Shown in pieces: positions 3,572 through 21,004 of a stretch of 22,162 bases of DNA. The translations under genes were made by a program, and so were the position numbers. This DNA comes from a virus (taxonomy: Duplodnaviria > Heunggongvirae > Uroviricota > Caudoviricetes). How positions within the stretch are numbered: the stretch's first letter is position 1; each line of letters starts with the position of its first letter. The notes beneath the pieces were generated by a model, which did no database searches, was not told the DNA's origin, and saw nothing but the letters and a program-made list of their open reading frames with translations. Location of the stretch: the IMG/VR virus record IMGVR_UViG_2711768033_000004. One strand, written 5' to 3'.

Positions 3572-3681
3572 GGAAGCATGGGAAGCATGGGAAGCATGGG
3601 AAGCATGGGAAGCATGGGAAGCATGGGAAGCATGGGAAGCATGGGAAGCATGGGAAGCATGGGAAGCATGGGAAGCATGGG
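3572..3681. repeat. perfect tandem repeat, 9-bp unit GGAAGCATG x 12 (plus 2 nt)
   Basis: Counted directly in the sequence: twelve identical consecutive units with no degenerate copies. No stop codon in any frame on either strand. Confidence 0.95.
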
Positions 3682-3951: not shown

Positions 3952-5970
3952 TTAATAACTTTCTTTCAATTCTTTTTTCTCAATCATCTTTACAAGATCT
4001 AACTCATCCCACTTGACAAACCAATAAGTTTTGAGCATAGATTGCAGATCGCTCTCAATTTCCAAATGGCTTCTATTCACATTTTTCTCATATTTTTTGA
4101 GATATTTTCTGTACAAAAATCGTCTTGTCTCAATTGAAACAAATGGGCAAGACATAACATCCAAGAATAAATGTGCCTTTTCCGATGATTGTAATAAATC
4201 CATATCAGGATATAGCAAATCTTTAATTCTAACCTCAACAATATGTTTAAGTTCTTGATAAGGTTTTCTATTTCTAAAATAGAATAATAATGAGATTATT
4301 GTAAAGTAATCCAATTTCTTTTTATGTATAATACCATTAAAGAAAGAAGTGCTTACAAGATAATTACCCCCAAAAAAAGTAGCAGCTAATATCAAATTAA
4401 CTTTCTCTATGGAAATAAACCCATCAATAAAAAGACCATTGTCATTTTCACCAAAATTGATATTTTCAGCAGTATCTATTAATGTTGTCATAAAAATACT
4501 GCTATAATCACTTGAAAGCATTTTCAAATAATCATTAACGATAACCATTGTTTTTGATAATTTATATGAAGATGACACAGTTGGGTTAACACTGAAGAAA
4601 AACAACATTATATCAGTTACTAAAAATATAATATCTTTAATATTCTTACGTATTTCAACATCACCTTTAATCTTTTCCACCGGAAAGAAATCAATAATTA
4701 ATATTAATCTTTTTGATAATGAAGATATCAGATACGAGGAAATATCCGTGTAAGAAACCTTGTTATCAACACATATAGACTTGATATTATTTATCATATT
4801 CACTTTTAAATCATGCTTGCTTCTAATCTTATTTAGAAAAATGTCACCATCAATCCTTTTATATAATTTACCTTCAAGATTCCGCACTAGTTCGTTAACT
4901 TTAATGATCAATCCTGTCTTGCTAGTGCAGAATGGCCTAGAATATTTTTTAAGTTTATTGATATTTAACTGAAGATTAAAATCATTTAGCTTCACGTTAA
5001 TGGTTTTAGTGATAAGTTCAGCATTTGCTTCATTGTTGCAAAACACTATAAAATCATCCACATACCTTAATATCACATAGTCCTCGTGATTAACCCACCC
5101 GTATTCATCAAAAAGATTTGATTCAATACTACAATCGATACGCTGGAATATTAACTCAGCAAAGACCCGACTAAATTCTGAGCCTATAGGTATACCATTA
5201 GTTTCATTATTATTACTACGTTGCATCAACGTATCTAGTTCCTGACCAAATTGATTGCTATATTTCACATGTTTTCTGATGTAAGGTTTATTTTTTAAAG
5301 CCCATGAAATAGAATGAGTATATATACTATCAAAACAATGTGATACATCTAACATCCACATTATTGAGAATCTTTTCTCAAGATCAAAAAACATTTTACT
5401 TTGAAATAACTTATATATCCTATTAAATCCGCCATAAGAAAAATAAGATGATGAATACTTCCTCATTAATTCATCATTTGTTGTTTCAATATCCTCTCCT
5501 TTATATTTCTCTGAGGCATTATTTTCATATAAGAAGAATGAGTTTGCGACCTTTCGAGGATATCTTATAGAGTAATTACTTTTTGACGCATTTAATGTTA
5601 TAACAGTTGAGTAATTTTTATAAAACTCACAATAATTAAGTTGCGATCTGGGATGAATTAAAGAAAGATATCTTAAACTAAAAGCATCCTTGACAATGCA
5701 ATAGCCAAACGGAAAGCTTTGTTTCTTCTTTTCTTTTTCTCGTTCTTCTATTTTTATAGACAAATCAAAAGCAGGATTAATAATTTTCTTTACGAATGAA
5801 GAAAGGGGAGAGAAATACAAAATCTCCTTATAATGATTTTCAAACTCGGTCAGGTTCAAATACAATCCATCATTTGAAAAGATGATGGGACAGTCACCTG
5901 GTTGCGTATCACATAGTAAAGCCCTGAGGTAATCCTTCTTATCAAGTTTTACATTTTTCTTTATAGCCAT
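3952..5970 (-). CDS. reverse transcriptase with a long C-terminal extension (672 aa); second gene of the RT pair, UG/Abi-type, DRT3-like
   Basis: RT motif A WMLDVSHCFDSI, motif B GIPIGSEFSRVFAELIF, motif C LRYVDDFIVFC. About 350 aa of helical-looking sequence follow motif C. The start overlaps the upstream RT gene by 10 nt. Confidence 0.85.
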   Translation of the reverse strand: MAIKKNVKLDKKDYLRALLCDTQPGDCPIIFSNDGLYLNLTEFENHYKEILYFSPLSSFVKKIINPAFDLSIKIEEREKEKKKQSFPFGYCIVKDAFSLRYLSLIHPRSQLNYCEFYKNYSTVITLNASKSNYSIRYPRKVANSFFLYENNASEKYKGEDIETTNDELMRKYSSSYFSYGGFNRIYKLFQSKMFFDLEKRFSIMWMLDVSHCFDSIYTHSISWALKNKPYIRKHVKYSNQFGQELDTLMQRSNNNETNGIPIGSEFSRVFAELIFQRIDCSIESNLFDEYGWVNHEDYVILRYVDDFIVFCNNEANAELITKTINVKLNDFNLQLNINKLKKYSRPFCTSKTGLIIKVNELVRNLEGKLYKRIDGDIFLNKIRSKHDLKVNMINNIKSICVDNKVSYTDISSYLISSLSKRLILIIDFFPVEKIKGDVEIRKNIKDIIFLVTDIMLFFFSVNPTVSSSYKLSKTMVIVNDYLKMLSSDYSSIFMTTLIDTAENINFGENDNGLFIDGFISIEKVNLILAATFFGGNYLVSTSFFNGIIHKKKLDYFTIISLLFYFRNRKPYQELKHIVEVRIKDLLYPDMDLLQSSEKAHLFLDVMSCPFVSIETRRFLYRKYLKKYEKNVNRSHLEIESDLQSMLKTYWFVKWDELDLVKMIEKKELKESY

Positions 5971-7238
5971 ATTTTTGTGATCTCAGTGTAACGTTTGAAA
6001 TTGTACTTCCTATAAACTCTATCAACAAAACCTTTTCTAAAACTATTGCGCAATAACTCCTTTCTTTGGTTTACAGTGAAGGAATGTTTCGCAATACTAT
6101 GCAAACGTCCGTTGTTCGATTTAACACAATATAATAAAAAATCATCTAATTGCTTTAAGGATATAGAATTTACATCCAATCTTGCATTACTATAATAAAT
6201 TCCAGTACTAACCTTACCTTTCTCTAATGAACTTAATGATCTAATCTTCCTATTTAAATCTCTATTGCTTGTTAAAAAAGAAATTCTATCTAATAACAAT
6301 TTAAAATCACCAGTTCTATGGTAGGAGTAGAAAGCTCTTGCTATTCTAGTTTTAATTTTTTTTATGCGTCCACGAGATAAATCTACAGTTACTTTTCTAT
6401 ATACACTTAAAGTAGCACCTTTGTTACTTAGAGGAGAATCTATTACAGAAAAAGAGTAACCTAAAAAATCAAATTTATGGAGTAATTTATCTTTACCTGC
6501 CGTGCCTTTGCTTCTTTTGTCGATAAGTGGGGACACCTTCAACTTATTTGTATTTAAACTTAATCCCTTGGGTAACAAACTTTGTATTTGTTTCATTAAA
6601 GTCGATGGGCATTCATTTCCACTTGAAATGATCACCATATCATCTACAAAGCGAGAGTAATAAAACACTTCTGAATGCCGATGAATACTACTATCAAATG
6701 CTGCCAAATATAGCTCAGATAACATAGGACTAATCTCCAGTCCTCTTGGCAAACCTTTTGATGAATGGATTCTTTCACAAGCTTTAAGATACCATTCTAT
6801 CAAATTTTTAGTATGTCTGGATAAACGCCGTTCATCTTGCAAATATTGAAAGAGCTGAGGCAAATCGATAGATTCAAAAAAAGATTTTATATCTAAGCGA
6901 TACACTCGGAATTGTGCACCTTCTTTGAGATAAATTTTAAGCTCATCAATTATTTTATTTCTTTGTTTGGGTAGAAGTGACTCCAAACATTTTAAGTTTG
7001 CATTACAATGTCTAAGTATTAGTTTTTCTTTTAAACAAGATGCGTTGTAAACACAACGTCCTTTGATATTTATTTTCTTTACAGTTACTCCAGAACGAAA
7101 ATTTTCGCTGGCAATTAAAACAGCATCACTGATTAATGATTCTAATTTATCCACATTGTTTTTATTAAAATAAAAACTCTTCTCACTTTCACTCAAGTTA
7201 CGCTTAAGTGCTGATGAAGTAAATGGCTGCCGGTTCAT
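5961..7238 (-). CDS. reverse transcriptase (about 425 aa); first gene of the RT pair
   Basis: Motif A YRLDIKSFFESI, motif B GLPRGLEISPMLSELYL, motif C YSRFVDDMVIIS, LGYSF motif. The ORF track extends to 7322 with a non-ATG start, but ATG at 7238 is preceded by GAGGGGGG, so I prefer that start. Confidence 0.85.
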   Translation of the reverse strand: MNRQPFTSSALKRNLSESEKSFYFNKNNVDKLESLISDAVLIASENFRSGVTVKKINIKGRCVYNASCLKEKLILRHCNANLKCLESLLPKQRNKIIDELKIYLKEGAQFRVYRLDIKSFFESIDLPQLFQYLQDERRLSRHTKNLIEWYLKACERIHSSKGLPRGLEISPMLSELYLAAFDSSIHRHSEVFYYSRFVDDMVIISSGNECPSTLMKQIQSLLPKGLSLNTNKLKVSPLIDKRSKGTAGKDKLLHKFDFLGYSFSVIDSPLSNKGATLSVYRKVTVDLSRGRIKKIKTRIARAFYSYHRTGDFKLLLDRISFLTSNRDLNRKIRSLSSLEKGKVSTGIYYSNARLDVNSISLKQLDDFLLYCVKSNNGRLHSIAKHSFTVNQRKELLRNSFRKGFVDRVYRKYNFKRYTEITKIWL

Positions 7239-7637
7239 AACCCCCCTCACAGTACTATCCTTTATGCTTTTATAACTCTTTACATCGTTGCGCGCAATCG
7301 CATCCTCGCTACACTTGACCACTTAATGTAATAGTTTCAGTCACCTGCATGAAATTGTGTAGGCCACGCTGACAAGTTGGCGGCTCGCTGGTCCCCACCG
7401 CATAATATGGGCATCATCCCTAACAATACTGGCGGTTTTAGCGATATGGGAAGATCCAGACTCTTATTTGTTCACATTTAATTGATATCTCTGCAGGTGC
7501 GAAGAAAAGATGATCAACATCGAACCATACGATTTAGGATACCAAAAAGTAGCGAATCTCCCCCAGCAACACTTACATCTATTGAAACTGACTGAGTTTC
7601 GCGAATTGCGCCAGAATTGACCATTTAGCCCTACCAC

Positions 7638-7856: not shown

Positions 7857-8129
7857 TCAGACAGGGATTTGTTGGCGGCTGGAAAGCTTGGATGCAGAGC
7901 CATAGCGATTCAGTGTCTGCCCTTTTTTGTCTGTAGCCTCCTCTACTGTCTGCGTATTCTCTTCTTTCTGCGGGCGGGTGATAATGGTATGCACTGATTC
8001 AAGCGCCGTAAAAGTGCTTGAACATTCCAGATTCTGGCACTGGTAGTACGTTTTCTTTACAGAGGGGGCTTCGTACACACTGGCTCGACAATGTGCAATG
8101 GCTGAACAGAAAGGACATTTCAATGCCAT
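7857..8129 (-). CDS. Ogr/Delta-family zinc-finger late transcription activator (90 aa)
   Basis: CPFC...YYQCQNLECSSTF matches the Ogr/Delta Cys4 zinc-finger pattern. GGAGGG lies 8 nt upstream. The start overlaps the upstream gene's stop (TGATG). Confidence 0.8.
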   Translation of the reverse strand: MALKCPFCSAIAHCRASVYEAPSVKKTYYQCQNLECSSTFTALESVHTIITRPQKEENTQTVEEATDKKGQTLNRYGSASKLSSRQQIPV

Positions 8130-8890
8130 CAGATACCCTCCGCAGCTCGGTTACGTTTTTGTAGTTCCTCACGTTCCTGCCGGATCTTCATTTTATGAAG
8201 GGCTGCCGGAGAAGGAATTTTGCGGAAATCAGCAAGAGCTGCATAATCCGGGGCAACTCCCGCCAGTTTAAACACCGGGTCCTGTTCAGGCATCGCATCG
8301 TTAGCCAGAGCCGGTCTGGTGATATGTTTATGAATAAAGTCTTTCAGCACTGTGTCCGGGTCATTAACTGAATTCACCACACCCACAACAGCACTGGCTT
8401 CCCGGCCCATTGTTGATTTAAGCAGGCTCAGCGTCTGAATAAGCGCTTTTCCATGCGACTGCATGAAGTCTTCCCAGATTTGCTTTGCGCGAATTTCCAC
8501 AAGGGTGTTATGTGCGCTGATATACTGCCCGGCTAATTTCCCGGCTTCCTGCGGTAATAATGCATTTTCGCTTTCCTGAGCAGTCAGCAGCTCATCAAAA
8601 TCCTCAAGCGTTTCACGCCCCAGCGCAATTTCCGTACGCAGTTTTTTCATTTCCTTTGAGACTACGCCCTGACTTTCACGAAACAGCGTGCGCCACTCCT
8701 CATTCAGCGCGTTAGTCGTGGCTTCCATTTCAGCGCGGCGCTGGCGGATTGTCGCAATATTATCCGCTGCCGCTTTCTGCTGACGACGTGCTTCAAGCCA
8801 TGCGTTTCTGGCTGTGTTCATGGTTTCCAGTGCCCGCTGCGTTACAGCCGGAAAAGAGGAAAGATTGTTATTCACTGCGGTGTTGTTCAT
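8129..8890 (-). CDS. putative Sid-like capsid size-determination / scaffold protein (253 aa)
   Basis: Long ORF translationally coupled to the Delta-like gene, sitting in the position of P4 sid and of similar size. The product call is positional inference only. Confidence 0.4.
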   Translation of the reverse strand: MNNTAVNNNLSSFPAVTQRALETMNTARNAWLEARRQQKAAADNIATIRQRRAEMEATTNALNEEWRTLFRESQGVVSKEMKKLRTEIALGRETLEDFDELLTAQESENALLPQEAGKLAGQYISAHNTLVEIRAKQIWEDFMQSHGKALIQTLSLLKSTMGREASAVVGVVNSVNDPDTVLKDFIHKHITRPALANDAMPEQDPVFKLAGVAPDYAALADFRKIPSPAALHKMKIRQEREELQKRNRAAEGI

Positions 8891-9068
8891 GACTTCTCCT
8901 GTCGGGTTGATTCGTTACGTAAATTGTGTCGTGGCTGACACAAGCACACTATCGGTGCTCAGTGTATGGTGGCTGGCACAACGCGCGATTGCGGTTATTC
9001 AGACGTGGCTATGAAAGCCAGCCAGATAAAAATGCCCTCTGTTTCAGTCTGCTGTATGTCCCTTATGC

Positions 9069-9256
9069 GGTGGAACAGGTGAAACATGTGTTACTGCTTT
9101 GTTTTGTAAAGCATTTATATGCACTGCACCGGTGGAACATCGCGGGTAACAAGGTGGAACAGCGGATTGGCTGGCGTTACATCTGTTCCACCTCACTATT
9201 TCAGAAGGTGGAACAGGTTCAGCCCTGTAAAATACGGTTGTTCCACCTGTTTCACC
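9069..9256. repeat. iteron cluster: about 8 copies of GGTG(G/A)AACA in both orientations (candidate replication origin, crr-like)
   Basis: Copies at 9069, 9078, 9131, 9153 and 9207 on the + strand, and inverted at 9184, 9239 and 9248, immediately downstream of the primase gene. P4 ori/crr carry comparable TGTTCACC-type iterons bound by the alpha protein. Confidence 0.65.
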
Positions 9257-9290
9257 TGTTACCCTTAATAAATAAGACTCACGCAAAGCC

Positions 9291-11963
9291 TTAACCCGGC
9301 ACCTTGCTGTTGAAGACATAGAGCCTGCGGGGATTCATCTCTGGCGGGCGAATGGTTGTCTGGAGTTTGCCATCAGTGGAGGGGAGCAGGTATCCACGAT
9401 CTGCGCACAGACGCGCCACCTTGCGCGGGTCAAATCCCCTGCAGATTTCTTTCCAGCCGGACGGCATGACATAGAACGTAGTGACAGCTTCCGTGCCCTG
9501 CGCGGTACTGCCTTTCTCCACCCTGCGCCAGCCCACCATATTGCCGGGGCGGTTGCGCTCGTCATACCAGTCTGCAAAGCGGCTGTACTGATTCGCGGTA
9601 AAGAAACTGCGAACCTGCTCCAGTGCGGCAATATCTTCCTGATTGGCGGTGTGCCCGCGATCTTTCAGCCATGCGTTCAGGCAGACGCGGGTTGCCCGCA
9701 GTGCTTCACCCTCAGGCCAGCCGGTGATACCCAGACGGGTTGCCAGTTCACCCGCCATCGCCACCAGTGCAAAGCGATTCACAGCCCGGCCCACCTGATT
9801 GCCTGCATCTTTCGGAGTCAGGGCGGCAGCATATTCCTTCATCAGCGATTTTGCCTGTGCCGTTAGTCCATTAAGATCAGCGGTCAGTACTTTCAGCCAC
9901 TCCCGGAACGGCGAACCGTAGTAGCAGGACGTGGCCCATTCAAGATGCTCTGCCAGAGCCTTGCCGCTGTCGAAGCCGTGCAGTTCCTCAAAAACGCCAA
10001 ATTTCCCGGAATCGCTGGGGATCTGGATCATCCTGACTTCCATCCCGGCAAAAGTACGCTCACCGGCCTTTGCCGCATGTTCGGTCAGAGACAACTCGCC
10101 AGTTGAAAAGAACAACAGGCGCCACTGCTTACGGGTACGCAGCTCACCGTCCGTACCGGCACGGCCCTTGCCCTGACCGTTTGCCAGCATGTAGGCGATA
10201 TTGCCTGCCTCGCGTCCGTCAACTTCCCGGATCTCATCAAGCATCATGGCGGCATCGTTGCGGCGGCTGGCGCATCCCTCCAGCGCGTTGCCGGTGGCCC
10301 GCCATGTCTGCCAGTAGTCAGGCCCGCCGCAGACGGAGGTTGCCGCTTTCATGGTGGTGGTCTTACCGTCTGTCGATTCCCCTTTGAGGTGGTAGCCGCC
10401 GCCGTCCATACCAACCAGCCGTAACAGTGGTGCAGCAAAGGCCAGGCTGACAGCAAATGCCACGCGGGAGTTGCCGGCACAGTAGCGGGATACGTTCTCC
10501 CGCCATTCCTCTGTTGTGCCCGACACGCGGAAATCACGCCCCTGCACGGAAGTGGTCTGGAGAATGACACCCTCTGCACCTTCACCGCTGACCTCATCCT
10601 GCAGGACGTAAACCTGACCATGCCAGCCAGTACGGCTGACGCAGGTCACGCGGCGTTCCGGTTTACACAGTGAGATATATTCCATCAGGCGTGCGCGTGC
10701 CTCGCCGGTGGTGCTGATATAAGACAGCCCGTTAACCAGCAGTACCCGGCGCAGTTCCTCACCACTGCCGCTCAGCATTTCCATCGGCATCGCCCAGCGG
10801 CGACGCTCACCCCACGTATCTTCCCATTCCAGCAGTCGTCCGAAGTTACCGCCATCGGCATCGCAGGTGATTGCCGTCACGCGCAGCGGGCTGCATATTT
10901 TGACGTTCTGGATCTCCGTCTCACCGTTGCGCTGTACCTGCTTTTCATACCAGAGATATTCCTGGGTAAGACGGAACCCGTGCGGCAGTTGCGTGCGGCC
11001 TTCCCCGCACAGTACCAGACCGTTGCGAAAGGCTTCACGGGCACGGGTAATACCGTGCTCCCGATGAAAGTCATTCCAGTCAGCCTTAATCTCTCCTGGT
11101 GGCAGCGTCATCCAGCCGCCAACAGCTTTTGCCGCCCGTTCAGCAAAGGCTCTGCCGGGATTCTCACCCCCGTCCTGAAAATCGTTATCACCGGCGATGA
11201 TAATTTTTACCTCAGGCCAGCGTGCCCGCAGCGACTGCGCCACATTGGGCAGGTTGCCCGCAGATATGGCAGCCACTACGCATCCGGCAGTGAGCTGGCT
11301 TACCGTCAGCGCCGTAGCGTAACCTTCGGTAATCACCACCTGTACCGGTGGTTCAGACGGTAACGGGATGAGCGACACAAACGCGCCTTTCATCGTGCTG
11401 CCGGGCAGTATGCTTTTTTCACCCGTCGGGGCGATAAGCTGTGCACCGGTTACGGCTCCGGTGTTGGTCGTGAGTGGTAACAGCAGGGAACCGGCAGGGA
11501 AATCCTTACCGCTGATATGCTGCACGCTTCCGGTCAGATAGGCCGGGTATCCGGCGAACCCTTTTTCTGTCAGATAGGCGCTTTCTCCCGTGTGGCTCTC
11601 TTTCATCAGCGCCGCCACGGTAAGACCCATGTCGCGTTTAGGGGCTTTTTGTCTGGCAGGCTTAACAGGCAGTTCCTGCACATCCGGCACATTAAGCACC
11701 TGCGCCACCTCCTGCGCAGCCTTTCTGACGCTGTAACCGGTTACGAGCTTAACCAGATCCAGACCATCACCATTGCCACACTGGCTGCAGATCCACGTCC
11801 CGCGCCCGTCAAGGTCATCAAGGCGAAAACGATCCTTGCCCCCACATTTCGGGCAGGGACCGTGCCTGCCGTTTTCAGGTACATCAATACGCAGCATCTG
11901 CAGAATAACGGGCCATTTCCCCCGTGCGGCGGCTGAAATCTGCGTAACCGTCTGTATTGTCAT
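9291..11963 (-). CDS. P4 alpha-like primase-helicase (890 aa): Zn-ribbon, TOPRIM, SF3-type P-loop
   Basis: N-terminal CPKCGG...CSQCGNGDG zinc ribbon; TOPRIM-like IIIAGDNDFQDGGE; Walker A GESTDGKTT. High G+C typical of the P4 backbone. Start overlaps the upstream gene (ATGA). Confidence 0.9.
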   Translation of the reverse strand: MTIQTVTQISAAARGKWPVILQMLRIDVPENGRHGPCPKCGGKDRFRLDDLDGRGTWICSQCGNGDGLDLVKLVTGYSVRKAAQEVAQVLNVPDVQELPVKPARQKAPKRDMGLTVAALMKESHTGESAYLTEKGFAGYPAYLTGSVQHISGKDFPAGSLLLPLTTNTGAVTGAQLIAPTGEKSILPGSTMKGAFVSLIPLPSEPPVQVVITEGYATALTVSQLTAGCVVAAISAGNLPNVAQSLRARWPEVKIIIAGDNDFQDGGENPGRAFAERAAKAVGGWMTLPPGEIKADWNDFHREHGITRAREAFRNGLVLCGEGRTQLPHGFRLTQEYLWYEKQVQRNGETEIQNVKICSPLRVTAITCDADGGNFGRLLEWEDTWGERRRWAMPMEMLSGSGEELRRVLLVNGLSYISTTGEARARLMEYISLCKPERRVTCVSRTGWHGQVYVLQDEVSGEGAEGVILQTTSVQGRDFRVSGTTEEWRENVSRYCAGNSRVAFAVSLAFAAPLLRLVGMDGGGYHLKGESTDGKTTTMKAATSVCGGPDYWQTWRATGNALEGCASRRNDAAMMLDEIREVDGREAGNIAYMLANGQGKGRAGTDGELRTRKQWRLLFFSTGELSLTEHAAKAGERTFAGMEVRMIQIPSDSGKFGVFEELHGFDSGKALAEHLEWATSCYYGSPFREWLKVLTADLNGLTAQAKSLMKEYAAALTPKDAGNQVGRAVNRFALVAMAGELATRLGITGWPEGEALRATRVCLNAWLKDRGHTANQEDIAALEQVRSFFTANQYSRFADWYDERNRPGNMVGWRRVEKGSTAQGTEAVTTFYVMPSGWKEICRGFDPRKVARLCADRGYLLPSTDGKLQTTIRPPEMNPRRLYVFNSKVPG

Positions 11964-12343
11964 ACTTCCCCCTCATACAACGTCACACCGGTACTGCAGA
12001 AGTCATCAAAGGCCGCCGGAAGCGTGCGGTACATCTCCGCCATCACTTCACAGCCGCGCGCGGTCAGTACCGGCGGTGCGGTCAGCAGTGACGGCTCCAG
12101 CATGTCAGTCAGCAGTGCCAGCGCGGCAGCGGCGCCCTGCACTTCGCCGTACTCGTTAATCAGTACGCACTCGATATGCAGCGCAATGGCCATTTCAATA
12201 CGCTCCACCGTCAGGCTGTGCGGACCATACTGATCACTGCCAGTTTCGTTCAGCATTTTCTGCCGCCATGCTGAAGCAATAGCTCGCCGGTAAAGCGCGG
12301 TGGTCATTTCTGCCGGGAAAATGGAAACCTGCGGCTGGTTCAT
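11960..12343 (-). CDS. hypothetical P4-like operon protein (127 aa)
   Basis: ORF in the primase operon with 4-nt overlaps to both neighbours. Confidence 0.55.
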   Translation of the reverse strand: MNQPQVSIFPAEMTTALYRRAIASAWRQKMLNETGSDQYGPHSLTVERIEMAIALHIECVLINEYGEVQGAAAALALLTDMLEPSLLTAPPVLTARGCEVMAEMYRTLPAAFDDFCSTGVTLYEGEV

Positions 12344-12624
12344 CTGGCACCTCCTTCAATCAGTGCGCAACTGTGTGCAATATCCGTCAAATCTGCCCGC
12401 AGGTACTCCATCAGCGCGGCGACACCATGCGCACAGCCAGCGTCCAGTGCTCCGGCCTGAGACGGGTATTCAGAAAAGAGAAGCTGGAGCATGTCGCAGG
12501 CATTTCTTGCGCGGGTCAGCTTTCCGAAACTGTCCTCTGACAACCCATAGGCAAAAGCACCGGTATTGTGTTTTTCAGGCAAAGTGTGGCCCTGAGCACC
12601 GTTGTGCCCGTTTGAAATATTCAT
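12340..12624 (-). CDS. hypothetical P4-like operon protein (94 aa)
   Basis: ORF in the operon; 4-nt overlap with the downstream gene. Confidence 0.55.
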   Translation of the reverse strand: MNISNGHNGAQGHTLPEKHNTGAFAYGLSEDSFGKLTRARNACDMLQLLFSEYPSQAGALDAGCAHGVAALMEYLRADLTDIAHSCALIEGGAR

Positions 12625-12655
12625 CGTGGATTACTCCGTTTTCAGCGGTATTTTG

Positions 12656-13015
12656 TCAGAGAAACTTTGAATAGTGACCGTCGTCAGGCTCAGCAGAACG
12701 CCATATGCTACGCTCCCGCCAGCGGATAAATAGCACAGACGGATGCAGTGTCAGCGGGCCGGAACCACTACCGCCTGCAGGAGCTGGTGCAGGCTTAAAG
12801 AGCGGTACATCAAACAGGCGCGTATACCGCTGTTCAAACCATGCCAGAGGGCAGGAAGAAAGCTGGTTGTCGCTGTCATGACGTATCAGCACTTCACAGC
12901 TGAATTCAGGATTAACCAGCGCCACAGAGGGCGAGGCTTCTATTAATCGGATAATCGTGACCGTCCAGCCACGTTCATGCTGCCAGCGTTCGCCGGGGTG
13001 CGGATAATTACGCAT
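12656..13015 (-). CDS. hypothetical protein (about 119 aa)
   Basis: ORF whose ATG at 13015 overlaps the stop of the upstream small gene (ATGCGTAA). The track's longer N-terminus (to 13045) is probably not used. Confidence 0.5.
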   Translation of the reverse strand: MRNYPHPGERWQHERGWTVTIIRLIEASPSVALVNPEFSCEVLIRHDSDNQLSSCPLAWFEQRYTRLFDVPLFKPAPAPAGGSGSGPLTLHPSVLFIRWRERSIWRSAEPDDGHYSKFL

Positions 13016-13937: not shown

Positions 13938-14762
13938 TTAGTTAAACTTAATGTTTTTCATGCAACTACGTAGCAAACTAACAACAGTATCATAGCTCAA
14001 AGGCGGTTCTCCGGTCTTAGGCCAGAACTCACTGGCATGTTGAAAAAGATAATCAGCTATCGCTGCTGGACTCTCTCTTCTTAGCCTCATATCACGATGA
14101 TAGAGCGAAATAATAGCCATGAGTATTTCAGCTCGAGGAACAGCATGTTTTTGTTTTTGCGCCTCAGATTGTGATTTATATTTATTGGCGTTTTTTATCC
14201 GCTTTTGTTCGCATAAGACTATATCAATGAATTTTTGAATCTGTACCTTTGTAATCCACAAAACCTCAAAAAGATAATAATTTTCTTTTTCATCATAATT
14301 TACATAAAGAATTACCTTACAATTTATATTAGGCGTACCCGCCAGTAGAAAATGAATAGGCCAGGAATCCGGTTGCCCCTCATGCTTAACTAACAGATCT
14401 TTATATTCATAATCAACAGCCCATAAACCGGATATGAAACATCGAATAAAACCATTTTTATCAATTAAATTATCTTCATCAGGGATTCTTATAGAACTTA
14501 AGTCTGACAACATAATATTGCCATTTCTATCTCGTGGTAAATATTTCAGATTAGATAAGAACTCATCCATTTGACCATCAATCTTCAAACCACATGAAAC
14601 ATCATACTCATCATCATGGAATTCCATGCATAGCTCTACATCTCGTTCTCTGGCAAACCAGAGTATATCCTTTTCACTACAACCAATTTTTTCTGAAGCT
14701 TCCTCCAACTGGTAGTAATCTCTGAGCAGAGAATCAGTATTATTAATTTTTAAAATATTCAT
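13938..14762 (-). CDS. hypothetical AT-rich protein (274 aa) with a possible N-terminal HTH, translationally coupled to the integrase
   Basis: Its ATG overlaps the integrase stop (ATGA). The N-terminal segment YQLEEASEKIGCSEKDILWFARE looks HTH-like. The rest has no recognisable motif. Confidence 0.7.
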   Translation of the reverse strand: MNILKINNTDSLLRDYYQLEEASEKIGCSEKDILWFARERDVELCMEFHDDEYDVSCGLKIDGQMDEFLSNLKYLPRDRNGNIMLSDLSSIRIPDEDNLIDKNGFIRCFISGLWAVDYEYKDLLVKHEGQPDSWPIHFLLAGTPNINCKVILYVNYDEKENYYLFEVLWITKVQIQKFIDIVLCEQKRIKNANKYKSQSEAQKQKHAVPRAEILMAIISLYHRDMRLRRESPAAIADYLFQHASEFWPKTGEPPLSYDTVVSLLRSCMKNIKFN

Positions 14763-15949
14763 TTATGAGTACCAATTAGCTCAGATAAATAATTAGCATA
14801 CCATTGCATCATTTCTCTTCTCCCTTCGAGATATTGGGCATGGTTATAAATTCCACGAATAGAGTTTTTGTCCGAATGAGCAAGCTGGGTTTCAATCCAA
14901 GCGCTGTTAAATCCTTTCTCATGTAGGATTGTACTCATCGTATGCCTGAAACCATGCCCCGTAACACGCCCTGCATATCCAATACGTTTAAACACCTGAT
15001 TAATGCTTGCTTCACTCATAAATTTGCTAGGATCGTTGCGTCCAGGGAACATCAGCGGGTAGTTCCCAGTTAGTTCTTTCAAACTTTTGAGATGGGATAA
15101 TGCTTGTTTTGACAACGGGACAATATGGCTCCTACGCATTTTCATACGTTCTTTTGGGATCTCCCACACCGCATTATCAAAATCCACCTCTCGCCACTCA
15201 CCTGCTCGTAGTTCTCCAGTTCGTAGACCTGTCAGGATAAGTAAATGCGCCCCCAACAATACAATTGGACTTCCTGAATAAGAATTAAGGGCATTAAAGA
15301 ACTCCGGTAGTTCGTTGGCTTTGAGGAATGGATAGTGGACTGCTTCATGTCCTTGCATCGCACTGGCAAGATCCGGTGCCGGATTGTAGATTGCCCTACC
15401 CGTTACGATGGCATAGCGAAAAACTTCACCGCATCGCTGACGGACTTTCTTCGCTTTCTCCATAGCGCCTCGAGTTTCTATCAACCTCAGAACTTCAAGC
15501 AGTTCAAGGGGCTGAATATCAGCTATAGGTCTGTGCCCAATATGCGGGAAAATGTCTTTCTCGAATGCCTCAATGATGTCGGAAGCATAGCCCTCAGACC
15601 ATTTGGGTGATTTCATTTTGTGCCACTCTAACGCCACTTCTCTGAATGGGTTAAGTGTCTCAATCGCTGCATTTAAAGCCTGCTTTTTGGCTTTTTTGAC
15701 TTCGCCGGGATCTTCACCTGCTGCGAGTAGTTTCTTCGCGTCTTCTCGTTTTTGTCTGGCATCAGCAAGTGTGACTGTTGGATAAACACCAAAGGACAAT
15801 CGTTTCTCTTTACCAGCAAAACGGTATTTCATACGCCAGTAACGCGAGCCATTAGGTTCGACCTGAAGGTATAGGCCACCTCCATCAAACAGCTTGTAGC
15901 TCTTCTCTTTTCCTTTCGCAGCTTCAACCTTGCGGGCATTCAGCATCAT
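14759..15949 (-). CDS. P4-type tyrosine integrase
   Basis: Begins MMLNARKVEAAKGKEKSYKLFDGGGLYLQV, typical of a P4-family integrase N-terminus, with the catalytic region ...HGFRHT... It lies about 165 bp from the tRNA 3' fragment. The track's longer ORF starts at a TTG (16018); I prefer ATG 15949. Confidence 0.9.
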   Translation of the reverse strand: MMLNARKVEAAKGKEKSYKLFDGGGLYLQVEPNGSRYWRMKYRFAGKEKRLSFGVYPTVTLADARQKREDAKKLLAAGEDPGEVKKAKKQALNAAIETLNPFREVALEWHKMKSPKWSEGYASDIIEAFEKDIFPHIGHRPIADIQPLELLEVLRLIETRGAMEKAKKVRQRCGEVFRYAIVTGRAIYNPAPDLASAMQGHEAVHYPFLKANELPEFFNALNSYSGSPIVLLGAHLLILTGLRTGELRAGEWREVDFDNAVWEIPKERMKMRRSHIVPLSKQALSHLKSLKELTGNYPLMFPGRNDPSKFMSEASINQVFKRIGYAGRVTGHGFRHTMSTILHEKGFNSAWIETQLAHSDKNSIRGIYNHAQYLEGRREMMQWYANYLSELIGTHK

Positions 15950-16113
15950 TGGGGGCACATTTCCTAGACCGAACAGAACATGCCCCTGATTGTGCCCCCA
16001 ACCGCGTGTTGATTTCAAGAGACAAGGGTTGACCTCAAACGTATGAAAACAACGTAATATATATGTTTTTAAATGATTTTGTTGATGTGGGTTGACTTGG
16101 GAAAACTAGGTGA

Positions 16114-16549: not shown

Positions 16550-19500
16550 TTATCTCGTAAAATTAGTTTTATGACTTCCTGTTAGCTGACTGTCTTCATA
16601 ATAAAATGCCCCACTAAACTCCTGTCGACCATAATGATGACTTGATGTGAGTGAGCCCCCTATAACACCTTTTTCACCTAATAATGTCCAAACGATTTCA
16701 AAACCATTGTCCCTTAACATTGTTAAAAATGGTTCTTTTTTAACAAGTAGATGCGGCTTTGAAGCATATACAGCTTCAGCTGCAAAGCAAACCATAGTTC
16801 CATTTTCATCATTGAAGCTACCCTCTACTTCCCCATTTTTTAAGCCCATCTTTTCAAAGATTAAGTTGCTAGGCTTCAAAAAATTCAAAGCTTCTATTTT
16901 TGATTTGTCGAACTCCTCTCCCCACAAATAATTAATCGAAGTGACACTAACATCAGCTATCTTAGCTCCAGACTCCCGGTCTGTTACCGAAGTCCAGTCA
17001 GAACCACCATAATAATCTGATTTAAAAGACTTAAATGCTTCGGACCAATAGTACTCCCTATTAAATAATTGGTATCTATCAGTACATTCCGGCATCCACC
17101 TGCCCATAAAGTCTTGAGCTATTGCCCAACATCTAAAATTTTCAAATTCTTGAACTTTAACGATATAACTTCTGATCTGATACCAAACCTCTTTTCGTGG
17201 GTGCCCCCAATCATCGTTTCCAATAATTTTTGGTTCTTTCCATGATGGATAACTTTCTAATACTATCCATTCATCACCATTATCATCTTTAACTTCAATC
17301 AAAGCATATGGATTAGTTATAGTAGTAGAGCTTTTAACCCAGTCTTCATTAGAGCAAGTCCAATCAAACACTTCATCATTAAGCCACCACATTTCTTTAT
17401 TGCTTATTTTTTTCGTCCCAGTTTCTTTAAGTAAGATAGTGGGATCTATATCTCTTACGTAAGGCTCCCATGGCCCTTGGTATGGGTTTTCCTTTCGGTC
17501 GTCACCATAACCTTCAAAACGAATAAAATTATCGGCTAGCCTTGCCATGTATTCATAATAAGCAATCCATTGGTATTTTTTACCAATCCGTTCTTGGAAT
17601 TCCTCTCTACGTCCACGTCCAGTTCCTATTTGTTGATCAAAATCACCATGCTTCTCCGGATCCCAACCAAGTTCCAGAACACGATTGAATATAAATTGTT
17701 GAGCTAGTCGAAGATCAAAGTGTTTATCAGTTTCCAGCAGATTATTATTATGATCTAGGTATGGCTCTATTTCATTTTCAAACTCACTTAACAGATCGTA
17801 TGACAATGAATTCTTAAATAGCTTCTTGCTCGCCTTTATTTCTTCCTGTGCTTTTCTACCGACCACGCTACCAAATTTAATTCCTTCACATTTATCATCA
17901 TAAATGAAAGGATCTGTAGCATCATACAATTTTTTTTGTTGGTCAGTTAGTTTACATTTGAAAGTTTTAAAAATTTTCTTACGGTCAATAGGAGTTTCAT
18001 TAAACTTGCAACCAGACCAATCAGAATGATTGTAATTTGTTCCAATGGTATATCGTGAAAAGTCACCACCTCCCATAATCGAGCTCCAGAGTGCCCGATA
18101 AGGTTCTTTATTATAAAGAGACTCTAGTTCCTCTTTTGGAGGAATCTCGTCAGGCCAAATGCTGTTGTAGGGTGGCCTAGTCTTGGATAATTCAATACTT
18201 TCAAGTTCCAGTCCAAGATGATTAGCAAATTCAATAATCTCTCTCGCATAATCTCTAAGTAATATATTTGGATACACAGACTCAGAACAAAATACCTTTT
18301 GGTAAACAGTTTCGGCTAAATATTTTAGTTCTTTAATATTATCAGTTCGCAATGTACAACCCAATGCAACTGCAAATATTCTTTCCCAAACGTAAGGATC
18401 ATTTACACCATAAAACTTATCAATTATTTTTCTCAATACAGGAATTCTTGGCTCGAGTAAACTCACTAAAGCCTTGGTTGAGCAATCTCGAAGTTCTCGG
18501 TTACTAGAAGTTAAAAACCAGCATAAACTAGTTGCAACTAGCTCGATTGACTCATCCGAAACGAAGCTTTTATCTGTTCTGCCCCATGCCCAATCGATTA
18601 GATGCCTAAATGCTGAGTCTTCACTATATTTATATTTAAGTTTTGTAGTCCAACACGAATCTCGATTTCCCAAAGAGTAATCTTTTAGCCAATCATGCAA
18701 GAAATTAGCATTAAAGGGATGGTCAACTAAACCTGAAATAGAGATCACTGCCTCGAGAAAATGATCAAAACTACCTTTAAATTTAAAAACATGTTCATTG
18801 ATGAAAGGTCTGATTTTTTCGAAATCAATAGCCTTAATATCTCGCCATATCAAGCTATCAATAAAGGCTTCTAGTAATTTATGATTATTGCTGAACTCCG
18901 GCAGAAATTCATAAAGCTCTTTTCCATACTTTTCTGGCAATTGAATAGAAAGCGCCTCAACTATTCCCGAGTTTGTATAAAAATCACATTCATCATGAAA
19001 ATATTTTTTCAGACGACCATCTGACTTAAATTCATTTTCGATATTTTCAACATCATTTAATAAAAAATTAACGGTTAAATGATCATCAAACCTTTCAAAA
19101 GCCACATGAACTACTTCCTCAGTAGCATTATCATTATTTCTCACTATGCCTTTAGTCAATAATCCTTCGTCAATCAAGGCGCTGAGGAAATTTTTATCTG
19201 TAACATAATCATTAACTACAGATTGAACCACTGAGTGAGCATCTCTAAGTGAAATACTATTACTACCAATCTCTAATTTGAATTTTATGATTTCGTTGAG
19301 AGCATCTTTTACAAGAGGAAAACTGGGATCGAAATCATATTTTTTTGGCGATGCCAATGATTTATTCACCCCTTCCACTAAAAAGTTAAAAATATTTGAA
19401 ATCCCATTAAACCCAACAGGTACTTTGGTTAAACCATTTTTCTTAATGCCTTCACACAATAACTTAAGAAATAGAGGGTTTTTAAACTCTGGATTAAGAT

Positions 19501-21004
19501 TAGGTGATGAAGGCCTCTCTATATTGTAATAATCATAAAATAGACTAACCGCTTCTAACTCAACATTCTGAAATCCAATATGTTCATGAATTTCAAAATT
19601 ATTTCGCTCAACATTCTCATGTGAAATTGTTACATTTCTATATGTTGTTCTGACTGACATTATCAGACCAAGCCATTCAAAGCATCTGATTTCATCGACA
19701 AAACTGTTAATATTGTCATTCCAGAATTTATTTCCATTACCTTCATTAATAGCATCAATGAAAACCAAGACTCTTTTTCCTGTTTTTTTGCCATATAAAT
19801 TCAGTTTTTCCAGGAATTCACGAGAAGTGATTTTAAGCTGTAATCTCTTGAAGATCTGTGACCATGGAGATTCATCTGAAGTAAGTTGTTGCCCTAGTAT
19901 GAGTAGAGAAGGATATCCAGAAGCAATTCGATTTTTAATCACATCAGCCAGTAAATGAGACTTACCAATTCCAGCTTTTCCTTCGAGAAGTAAGAATGGG
20001 TTGTTAGCCAACTTTACTGTTGTTGAATTAATGAATGTACGTAATTCATTGCACGCATAGTCAAGTTCCCGAAGCATTCGCAGAGTAGATGAATACTTAT
20101 CACTGTAATGCTTGGTTTCACCTACTTGTTCTGACTTTTCTCGGAGTTCCCACAATATTGATTCCGCTCCGCCAATAGCTGTCTGGCAGCTGTCAACATA
20201 GTTATTAAATTTATTTATAGGAATTTGATCTAATTTAGAAAAATTAAGCTCTTGATATATATCCGCAATTTGATTTAAGGACTCGTCTATTACAGATAAT
20301 TCTGAGTAAATTACATCGCAACTATGTAACCTCTTTCTAGTCATCAGAAAATTATCTATATGTGAGTAAAATATTTTAGCAAAATCATCAGTTCTACCGA
20401 GACCATCAAATATCTCTGCTATTTCTAGCTTTACGTTGAGTTCGGGTGTGTATCGGCCTCCCAAGTCAGCTATTGCTTGACTATTTTTTTCATTTAACCA
20501 ACCATCACTCAAGTGAAAAGTTAGTTTGTCATCTATAGACCGCAAAATAAGTTTAACTTGAATAAGCTCTTCATTAATATCGAATATTTTTTCTTTATAC
20601 GTTTCTTCGATATGTAGCTTTTTTAACTTCGAACAATTATTGATTTTTAACGATAACATCTCATAAAAAAGGCTGAGTTGTTGTTGAGTTGGGGGGGTGA
20701 TGCTTGGATATTCTTTGAACTTGTCTAATAATATCCCTTTGTCAGGGAACTCTTTAAACAAGATGTGTTCATTCAACATCTCAAACAATGGTTCAGAATG
20801 ATAAAATGGAATTGCTCCACTTTCTACTGGATATGTTTCTTCAAACTCAATTGCCGTCTCTTCAATTAGTTGATATAATCTATCCACATATCTTTTTTGG
20901 GGGAATAATGCTTTCTTAATACAACCATATCCTTCTTGAGAGATGAATTGATCAATAAGTTTAGTTGCTACATAAGTTGCCACTGTAATTGATATAGGTT
21001 CCAT
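16550..21004 (-). CDS. large STAND / NACHT-like P-loop NTPase (1484 aa), candidate antiviral NLR-like protein
   Basis: Uninterrupted 4.4-kb ORF, markedly AT-rich. Walker A LLLEGKAGIGKSHLL (GxAGxGKS, NACHT-type) at about residue 340; Walker B-like RVLVFIDAINEG. It has an unassigned N-terminal domain of about 330 aa and a C-terminal region of about 1000 aa. Confidence 0.8.
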   Translation of the reverse strand: MEPISITVATYVATKLIDQFISQEGYGCIKKALFPQKRYVDRLYQLIEETAIEFEETYPVESGAIPFYHSEPLFEMLNEHILFKEFPDKGILLDKFKEYPSITPPTQQQLSLFYEMLSLKINNCSKLKKLHIEETYKEKIFDINEELIQVKLILRSIDDKLTFHLSDGWLNEKNSQAIADLGGRYTPELNVKLEIAEIFDGLGRTDDFAKIFYSHIDNFLMTRKRLHSCDVIYSELSVIDESLNQIADIYQELNFSKLDQIPINKFNNYVDSCQTAIGGAESILWELREKSEQVGETKHYSDKYSSTLRMLRELDYACNELRTFINSTTVKLANNPFLLLEGKAGIGKSHLLADVIKNRIASGYPSLLILGQQLTSDESPWSQIFKRLQLKITSREFLEKLNLYGKKTGKRVLVFIDAINEGNGNKFWNDNINSFVDEIRCFEWLGLIMSVRTTYRNVTISHENVERNNFEIHEHIGFQNVELEAVSLFYDYYNIERPSSPNLNPEFKNPLFLKLLCEGIKKNGLTKVPVGFNGISNIFNFLVEGVNKSLASPKKYDFDPSFPLVKDALNEIIKFKLEIGSNSISLRDAHSVVQSVVNDYVTDKNFLSALIDEGLLTKGIVRNNDNATEEVVHVAFERFDDHLTVNFLLNDVENIENEFKSDGRLKKYFHDECDFYTNSGIVEALSIQLPEKYGKELYEFLPEFSNNHKLLEAFIDSLIWRDIKAIDFEKIRPFINEHVFKFKGSFDHFLEAVISISGLVDHPFNANFLHDWLKDYSLGNRDSCWTTKLKYKYSEDSAFRHLIDWAWGRTDKSFVSDESIELVATSLCWFLTSSNRELRDCSTKALVSLLEPRIPVLRKIIDKFYGVNDPYVWERIFAVALGCTLRTDNIKELKYLAETVYQKVFCSESVYPNILLRDYAREIIEFANHLGLELESIELSKTRPPYNSIWPDEIPPKEELESLYNKEPYRALWSSIMGGGDFSRYTIGTNYNHSDWSGCKFNETPIDRKKIFKTFKCKLTDQQKKLYDATDPFIYDDKCEGIKFGSVVGRKAQEEIKASKKLFKNSLSYDLLSEFENEIEPYLDHNNNLLETDKHFDLRLAQQFIFNRVLELGWDPEKHGDFDQQIGTGRGRREEFQERIGKKYQWIAYYEYMARLADNFIRFEGYGDDRKENPYQGPWEPYVRDIDPTILLKETGTKKISNKEMWWLNDEVFDWTCSNEDWVKSSTTITNPYALIEVKDDNGDEWIVLESYPSWKEPKIIGNDDWGHPRKEVWYQIRSYIVKVQEFENFRCWAIAQDFMGRWMPECTDRYQLFNREYYWSEAFKSFKSDYYGGSDWTSVTDRESGAKIADVSVTSINYLWGEEFDKSKIEALNFLKPSNLIFEKMGLKNGEVEGSFNDENGTMVCFAAEAVYASKPHLLVKKEPFLTMLRDNGFEIVWTLLGEKGVIGGSLTSSHHYGRQEFSGAFYYEDSQLTGSHKTNFTR

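Follow-up and report, generated by a model that had tools for sequence, protein, structure and literature searches.

A single iteron cluster 3' of a primase-helicase gene is the probable replication origin of a P4-related island in Escherichia coli

A cluster of short repeats immediately 3' of a primase-helicase gene probably serves an integrated, satellite-like island related to P4 as its vegetative replication origin. The DNA analysed here (the window, 22,162 bp in full) is E. coli chromosomal DNA. The assignment is a comparative one, and is supported by the conserved geometry of the repeats, their linkage to the primase gene, an AT-rich gap among them, and co-variation of the repeated word with the C-terminus of the encoded protein. 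The preliminary description of this DNA had suggested an origin or cis-required region resembling the ori and crr of P4. The suggestion of an origin stands up well in these comparisons, while the resemblance to P4 does so in part. SaPI/PICI origins are a closer mechanistic model than P4 ori plus crr, because the helicase and DNA-binding part of the protein is of the SaPI Rep/Cch type and because there is a single cluster.

Both strands of the window were scanned for the 9-bp word GGTGRAACA. The scan gave eight exact matches in the 22,162 bp, every one of them inside 9069-9256. They are found on the plus strand at 9069, 9078, 9131, 9153 and 9207 and on the minus strand at 9184, 9239 and 9248, and comprise six copies of GGTGGAACA and two of GGTGAAACA. 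The expectation is 0.42 matches per window (sd 0.71), and a count of eight or more was reached in none of 100 dinucleotide-preserving shuffles. When one mismatch was allowed, the extra matches outside the array were scattered across the window at chance level, and there is therefore only a single GGTGRAACA cluster in the window. The earlier claim was of about eight GGTG(G/A)AACA iterons at 9069-9256, present as direct and inverted copies with irregular spacing 3' of the primase-helicase gene. Count and span prove to be exact, the arrangement was seen as described in the enumeration of both strands, and the motif is far more frequent than in shuffled sequence.

Alignment with related loci adds three degenerate copies in a conserved register: CGGGTAACA at 9143-9151 on the plus strand, and two copies at 9175-9183 and 9257-9265 whose reverse complements are GATGTAACG and AGGGTAACA, respectively. 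With the eight exact copies this gives an array of about 11 sites of 9 bp over 9069-9265, the positions of which match the iterons of about 50 related loci. The array begins 26 bp past the stop of the primase-helicase gene (9291-11963, minus strand), that is, 3' of the open reading frame, and the RefSeq annotation has no feature in the array interval. Closest to the gene is a minus-strand tandem triplet with a 9-bp period (9239-9265; TGTTCCACC, TGTTTCACC, TGTTACCCT), which in the direction of the primase gene reads AGGGTAACA-GGTGAAACA-GGTGGAACA and corresponds to a triplet at +26/35/44 found in nearly all relatives. It is followed by a single plus-strand iteron GGTGGAACA (9207-9215), at a conserved position about +77 after the stop; by a minus-strand pair at 9175-9192, consisting of the degenerate CGTTACATC and the exact TGTTCCACC (conserved at about +99/108); and by three plus-strand iterons at 9131-9161, namely GGTGGAACA (9131), the degenerate CGGGTAACA (9143) and GGTGGAACA (9153), conserved at about +127-160. 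The distal end is formed by a plus-strand tandem pair GGTGGAACA-GGTGAAACA (9069-9086, conserved at about +200-220), which is inverted with respect to the proximal triplet. The spacing is thus irregular, except for the outer pairs, which are tandem with a 9-bp period and mutually inverted, and make 18-nt inverted arms at the ends of the array (9069-9086 against 9239-9256, inverted repeat I2).

The iterons lie on both sides of a gap of 44 bp (9087-9130), with the distal tandem pair at 9069-9086 (plus strand) on one side and the nearest sites of the opposite side starting at 9131. In the GC profile no part of the interval is richer in AT than this iteron-free gap: GC is 27.5% at 9080-9119 and 23% in the lowest-GC 30-mer (9091-9120). 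The gap is a candidate DNA-unwinding element. Among 50 related loci, 39 have their lowest-GC 30-mer beginning between about +144 and +186 (median +161, median GC 23%). The gap is off-centre, having about eight sites on the primase side and two or three on the far side. Between the array and the gene there is also a TCTTAT box on the minus strand (9272-9277; plus-strand reading ATAAGA), which lies 14-19 nt past the primase stop. The box is invariant in 12 of 12 aligned loci from different genera, and occurs too in the P4-like island of E. coli EC958, which has a module of the window type with the word xxGGTAACA.

A search of 8891-9290 for DnaA boxes (TTWTNCACA), IHF sites (WATCAANNNNTTR) and GATC gave no match. 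This is unlike the iteron plasmids of the RepA/Pi/TrfA class, in which DnaA boxes and/or an IHF site adjoin the iterons and the Rep is a small dimeric winged-helix protein, whereas the proposed initiator here is a primase-helicase of 890 aa. The whole window gave no Rfam family at the gathering threshold and no tRNA with ARAGORN, and a nucleotide search with 8000-12700 found no match among phage records.

Relatives were collected by scanning one genome per species. This gave 55 loci with 57-99% protein identity from more than 20 genera, including Pantoea, Yersinia, Serratia, Enterobacter, Pectobacterium, Brenneria, Xenorhabdus, Proteus and Rahnella. In almost all of the 55 loci a word is repeated 8-13 times, starting 23-44 bp past the stop, with no exact copies elsewhere in the loci of about 10 kb. 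About 50 Enterobacterales relatives carry a module of about 200 bp after the gene, in which the positions and orientations of the sites and the AT-rich gap are kept. Starting from the primase side, a tandem plus triplet occupies about +26/35/44 and a minus site about +77; then come plus sites at about +99/108, a pair of minus sites at about +127-147, and a plus site near +158. Beyond these lies the AT-rich gap, and past the gap three tandem minus sites at about +192-220. The cluster is missing from one locus, apparently a degraded one, and another locus is too short to judge. In L039, L047 and L056, which are relatives at 57% identity, the cluster (GTGGGAACA, 10-11 copies) is located about 1.1 kb downstream, beyond an inserted ORF; in L039 and L047 this ORF has about 326-329 aa and begins within 14-22 nt of the primase stop.

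While the geometry of the sites stays fixed, the 9-bp word shifts in concert between lineages. The lineage words are GGTGGAACA, GGTGTAACA, GGGGTAACA, (C/G)TGGTAACA (xTGGTAACA), GAGGTAACA, GTGGATACA, GCGGTTACA, TGTAGTACA and GTGGGAACA. Two elements per genome are found in Pantoea stewartii ATCC 8199, Pantoea leporis R and Enterobacter intestinihominis (L003/L046, L013/L052 and L012/L043), and within each of these genomes the two iteron words differ. This would fit orthogonality of the origins of co-resident satellites, although three cases are too few to be more than an anecdote, and by a rough estimate about 4 in 10 such genome triples would differ in word by chance.

The window and a Serratia locus (L051) share the same word at just 57% protein identity. 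Their DNA is 84% identical at the shared iteron columns and 35% identical in the spacers. Selection acting on protein-binding sites would be expected to produce such a pattern, which rules out chance or coding sequence as the source of the array. Two open reading frames do overlap the array, one of 122 aa on the plus strand (8926-9294) and the other of 91 aa on the minus strand (9044-9319), which would favour a coding-sequence feature. RefSeq has no gene there, however, and across genera it is just the 9-bp sites that are conserved, the spacers having near-random identity and indels, unlike coding sequence. As the observed count was also never reached by shuffling, we regard chance or coding as so improbable that it can be set aside.

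The array lies in a 400-bp interval upstream of a psu/sid-like gene (8129-8890, minus strand), and among the products of the island are an Ogr/Delta-like zinc-finger protein and HTH proteins. The repeats might accordingly be proposed to be operator or activator sites for the psu/sid-like and ogr/delta-like late genes, or for autoregulation of the primase operon, bound by a regulator and not by the primase-helicase. We consider this very unlikely. The module follows the primase gene whatever gene is next, even when that gene is unrelated or more than 1 kb distant, and the psu/sid-like gene is next in some loci only. A consensus scan of 8700-9500 found no promoter or terminator inside the array, with counts at shuffle level, and an arrangement of 11 sites in two orientations around an AT-rich gap is atypical of operators. 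Candidate late-promoter sites are moreover present separately, as paired TGT-N12-ACA dyads, 38 bp apart, at 8925-8942 and 8963-8980, upstream of the psu/sid-like gene. We take TGT-N12-ACA to be the site at which P2 Ogr and P4 Delta activate late promoters. Such pairs are found mainly in loci where the psu/sid-like gene is next, and also in two Yersinia loci whose next ORF has no psu/sid match; the remaining loci lack them. The pair probably marks a helper-activated late promoter which is separate from the iteron array, and this argues against the iterons as late-gene operators.

The proposed initiator is the 890-aa protein encoded by the primase-helicase gene, which consists of a Zn-ribbon, Toprim, DUF927 and a C-terminal domain. 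Pfam identifies DUF927 (E 4e-91) as well as the Zn-ribbon and Toprim; PHROG assigns the protein as DNA primase, and RefSeq names it 'TOPRIM and DUF927 domain-containing protein'. Over aa 5-316, the N-terminal primase domain shares 38% identity with P4 alpha. The DUF927 part matches two proteins in the PDB by sequence, SaPIbov1 Rep (8tch, E 3e-15) and SCCmec Cch (5dgk, E 3e-13). A comparison of the last 280 residues with P4 alpha using hhalign gave no similarity (probability 0.1%).

The structure of the C-terminal part was modelled using database homologues. The confidence of the model is moderate (mean pLDDT 70, pTM 0.46), and only the last 100 residues or so are confidently predicted. In this model the C-terminus folds as a winged helix, whose nearest matches are the C-terminal parts of SaPIbov1 Rep (8tch) and Cch (5dgk), together with TcpK, an oriT-binding wHTH protein; the origin-binding domain of P4 alpha is not among the fold matches. 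In sequence and in this model, the helicase and the C-terminal winged-helix part therefore appear to resemble SaPI Rep and SCCmec Cch and not P4 alpha. The predicted winged-helix domain (about aa 790-890, encoded by 9294-9596, minus strand) is proposed to read the iterons. The L050 and L051 proteins align with the window protein from about residue 324 onward and have different N-termini, and their loci keep the module. The module thus goes with the helicase and C-terminal portion of the protein.

Residue 866, in the predicted wing, is lysine in all 20 loci with G at position 2 of the word (GGTG-, GGGG-, TGGG-), and arginine in all 25 other loci, of which 22 have T or A at this position and three are Rahnella loci with a much-diverged word. 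L039 has arginine at 866, and its word GTGGGAACA combines a window-like 3' half with an xTGG 5' half. A neighbour-joining tree requires at least three independent K/R switches at residue 866. Even close relatives can differ: L023 (K866, GGTGTAACA) is 96% identical to L025 (R866, xTGGTAACA). Three further proteins (L030, L018 and L020), which are 95-98% identical, have three different words, and the positions at which they differ cluster within residues 856-885 (Fisher p 8e-4, 7e-5 and 2e-4).

The co-variation is not seen everywhere. Two closely related pairs apart from L030, L018 and L020 have no enrichment of differences in 856-885. The window and L006 proteins are 90% identical and their majority words differ, with no enrichment of differences in the C-terminal segment (p 0.16). 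No protein column is disjoint between loci with GGTGGAACA and loci with GGTGTAACA, none cleanly follows the G/T difference at word position 5, and the mutual-information ranking is dominated by hypervariable N-terminal positions. The window array itself mixes G, A and T at position 5, which may therefore not be read strictly, and together these results make homogenisation possible for part of the word change. The concerted change of the word could thus come partly from repeat homogenisation and not from altered specificity. It is concluded that the co-variation supports the C-terminal domain as the putative reader of the iterons, in a correlative manner.

The same results bear on a role as a centromere-like partition site, or as a packaging or recombination site of the island. 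Short arrays of direct and inverted repeats do also mark parS/parC and some pac or cos-binding regions. The window has no ParA/ParB-type, terminase or extra recombinase gene beside the array, however, and across genera the module is tightly tied to the gene of the initiator, a domain of which co-varies with the word. A partition, packaging or recombination site is therefore a highly improbable reading.

How far the likeness to P4 goes can be judged from the P4 record, in which type-1 iterons (GGTGAACA) are present in crr (4291-4590, directly 3' of alpha) and in ori (9310-9413). The word in the window is GGTGAACA with one extra base, making a 9-mer, although the exact octamer GGTGAACA (TGTTCACC) is absent from the window cluster. 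Both systems have direct and inverted copies, some with 9-bp spacing, around AT-rich DNA. The position is also similar. The window cluster lies between the stop of the primase gene (9291) and the start of the psu/sid-like gene (8890), about 180 bp 5' of the latter; it is therefore placed both like crr, which is 3' of the primase gene, and like ori, which is about 170 bp 5' of sid. The differences are in the protein and in the layout. Only the primase third of the window protein is alpha-like (38%, aa 5-316): alpha continues with D5_N, DUF5906 (SF3 helicase) and Pox_D5, and the window protein with DUF927 and a C-terminus of the SaPI-Rep type. P4 needs two separate iteron clusters, ori and crr, about 4.5 kb apart, and the window has one. 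The proposed resemblance to P4 ori/crr thus holds for the position, the primase domain and the word, and does not hold for the helicase and DNA-binding part or for the two-site layout.

The cluster of P4 that is placed in a similar way, crr, is required in cis and yet is not the site of initiation. By analogy the window array could be a cis-acting accessory element for replication or copy control, like P4 crr or the handcuffing iterons of plasmids, where the initiator binds while replication initiates elsewhere in the island. Since the P4 cluster directly 3' of alpha is crr, with ori 4.5 kb away, the crr-like placement of the window array is in keeping with this. The proposal is weakened by two observations: neither the 22-kb window nor the relatives' loci of about 10 kb contain a second cluster of the word, and the array has an AT-rich gap of its own, which is conserved. 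In addition, the distance of about 180 bp to the psu/sid-like gene is close to that of P4 ori to sid, and the initiator is of the SaPI Rep type, for which a single cluster 3' of rep is the origin. On balance an accessory role is unlikely, and an origin is the reading that we prefer.

The SaPI systems offer the model for such an origin. SaPI Reps, which are self-loading helicases, use their C-terminal winged helix to recognize iterons; 6-12 iterons are located directly downstream of the rep ORF; the origin includes an AT-rich region flanked on either side by two or more iterons, those of one side facing opposite to those of the other; and in SaPI5 a primase is fused to Rep (PMC9371898). The window resembles SaPIbov1, SaPI1 and SaPI5 in having its repeats (8 exact and 3 degenerate) directly 3' of the initiator ORF, in the AT-rich gap with at least two iterons per side and inverted outer arrays, and in joining a DUF927/MCM-like AAA+ helicase to a winged helix at the C-terminus, where 8tch and 5dgk are matched both by sequence and by fold. 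It differs in that the host is Gram-negative, the iterons are of 9 bp (5-6 bp in SaPIs), and the AT-rich gap is off-centre. The primase module is of the P4-alpha type (Zn-ribbon/Toprim), and the element has psu-like, ogr/delta-like, icd-like and DUF5375 genes, not the packaging genes of SaPIs.

On this model, we infer binding to the iterons, melting at the AT-rich gap and origin activity, as follows. Derepression of the island would lead to production of its own 890-aa protein, whose C-terminal winged-helix domain would recognize the 11 or so 9-bp iterons. At each end of the array the iterons form a tandem set facing inward, with sites of mixed orientation between the two sets, and several protomers would assemble on this array. 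The DUF927 (MCM-like AAA+) ring may then load itself at the adjacent 44-bp AT-rich gap (9087-9130) and melt it. The fused Zn-ribbon/Toprim domain would lay the first primers, after which host polymerase would take over.

Gram-negative PICIs have been reported with the same layout, and a pri-rep-ori segment of EcCICFT073 replicates (PMC6092414). Like the window island, EcCICFT073 is an E. coli chromosomal satellite with int, regulators and pri-rep in one direction, and its iterons flank AT-rich DNA in an interval of about 290 bp after pri-rep. Its Pri-Rep differs, being a protein of 584 aa with D5_N/DUF5906/Pox_D5 (the P4-alpha helicase type) and without Toprim or DUF927; its iterons are GGTAGACAG, and it has capsid genes instead of psu/delta. 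In the window element, int is followed in one direction by HTH/excisionase-like and icd-like genes, the primase-helicase gene and the putative origin. Its accessory genes are of the P4 type (psu-like, ogr/delta-like), and no capsid or packaging genes of PICIs were seen in the window.

A further parallel, from a distant relative, is the E. coli episome pZ1323CEC0013_1-4 (NZ_CP148430.1, 12,152 bp), which was deposited as circular and encodes an integrase, an icd-like protein, PerC and an antirepressor. Its only annotated replication gene encodes a TOPRIM-DUF927 protein with the same architecture as the window protein (33.5% identity), and directly after this gene there are three iterons in tandem (9-bp period), then 42 bp of AT-rich DNA and three copies in inverted orientation. 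It differs in its word (GTTGGTTCA), its simpler 3+3 layout and its PICI-like gene set. A Salmonella 'plasmid' (OX345456, 6,989 bp, with a 67.6% identical protein) was also considered as an autonomous replicon and rejected, as it is a linear contig from a fragmented assembly.

The island itself is a run of minus-strand genes, in the order int, regulators, primase-helicase, iterons, psu/sid-like, ogr/delta-like, drt3a, drt3b and FRG. The integrase gene (14759-16018) is followed by a 274-aa ORF and an HTH/excisionase-like gene, and then, before the primase-helicase, by an icd-like gene, small ORFs and DUF5375. On the far side of the array, the Psu/Sid-like gene (8129-8890) is followed by the Ogr/Delta-like zinc-finger gene (7857-8129), drt3a (5961-7322) and drt3b (3952-5970), which encode the reverse transcriptases of a DRT3 antiviral system, and the gene for an FRG-domain protein (1567-2946). 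Identities to the P4 homologues are 43% for int, 54% for icd, 40% for orf106/DUF5375, 38% for the alpha N-terminus, 35% for delta and 23% for psu. The island is therefore related to P4, although its gene order is unlike that of P4. A 1484-aa ORF (16550-21004, minus strand) adjoins the integrase gene, and is absent from the RefSeq locus that supplied the annotation, which is identical in other respects.

Of 5426 complete E. coli genomes, 326 (about 6%) contain the 400-bp interval with the array at an identity of at least 90%, and for the island in these genomes a probable origin and initiator have thus been located. The DRT3 system (3952-7322, beside the ogr/delta-like gene) and the FRG gene look like defence cargo of the island. 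Since the island carries this antiviral system, the putative origin bears on the amplification and mobilization of defence cargo.

That iterons lie 3' of the rep gene of a satellite is an established concept, both for staphylococcal and for E. coli phage satellites. It is possible, though we hold it to be doubtful, that the loci described here form a replicon family new to description in Enterobacterales satellites, combining a P4-type primase with a SaPI-Rep-type helicase and a geometry-locked origin of about 11 sites, with at least eight word classes and a specificity set by a few residues of the C-terminal wing (for example K/R866 for the 5' half of the word). If so, co-resident satellites would have mutually orthogonal origins, and the separate ori and crr of P4 would be merged into a single site. 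The most useful by-product is the family series, with its identical geometry, varied words and candidate specificity residues. These natural variants and residues make initiator-origin recognition by self-loading helicases directly testable, and the series could supply orthogonal replicons.

A second repeat array is found near the DRT3 genes. It consists of 12.2 perfect tandem copies (100% matches) of the 9-bp unit GGAAGCATG at 3572-3681, which is 271-380 nt 3' of drt3b (3952-5970, minus strand). The ncRNA of DRT3 has been reported downstream of drt3b, inside an analysed 250 nt of intergenic sequence, and the GGAAGCATG array sits just past this stretch.
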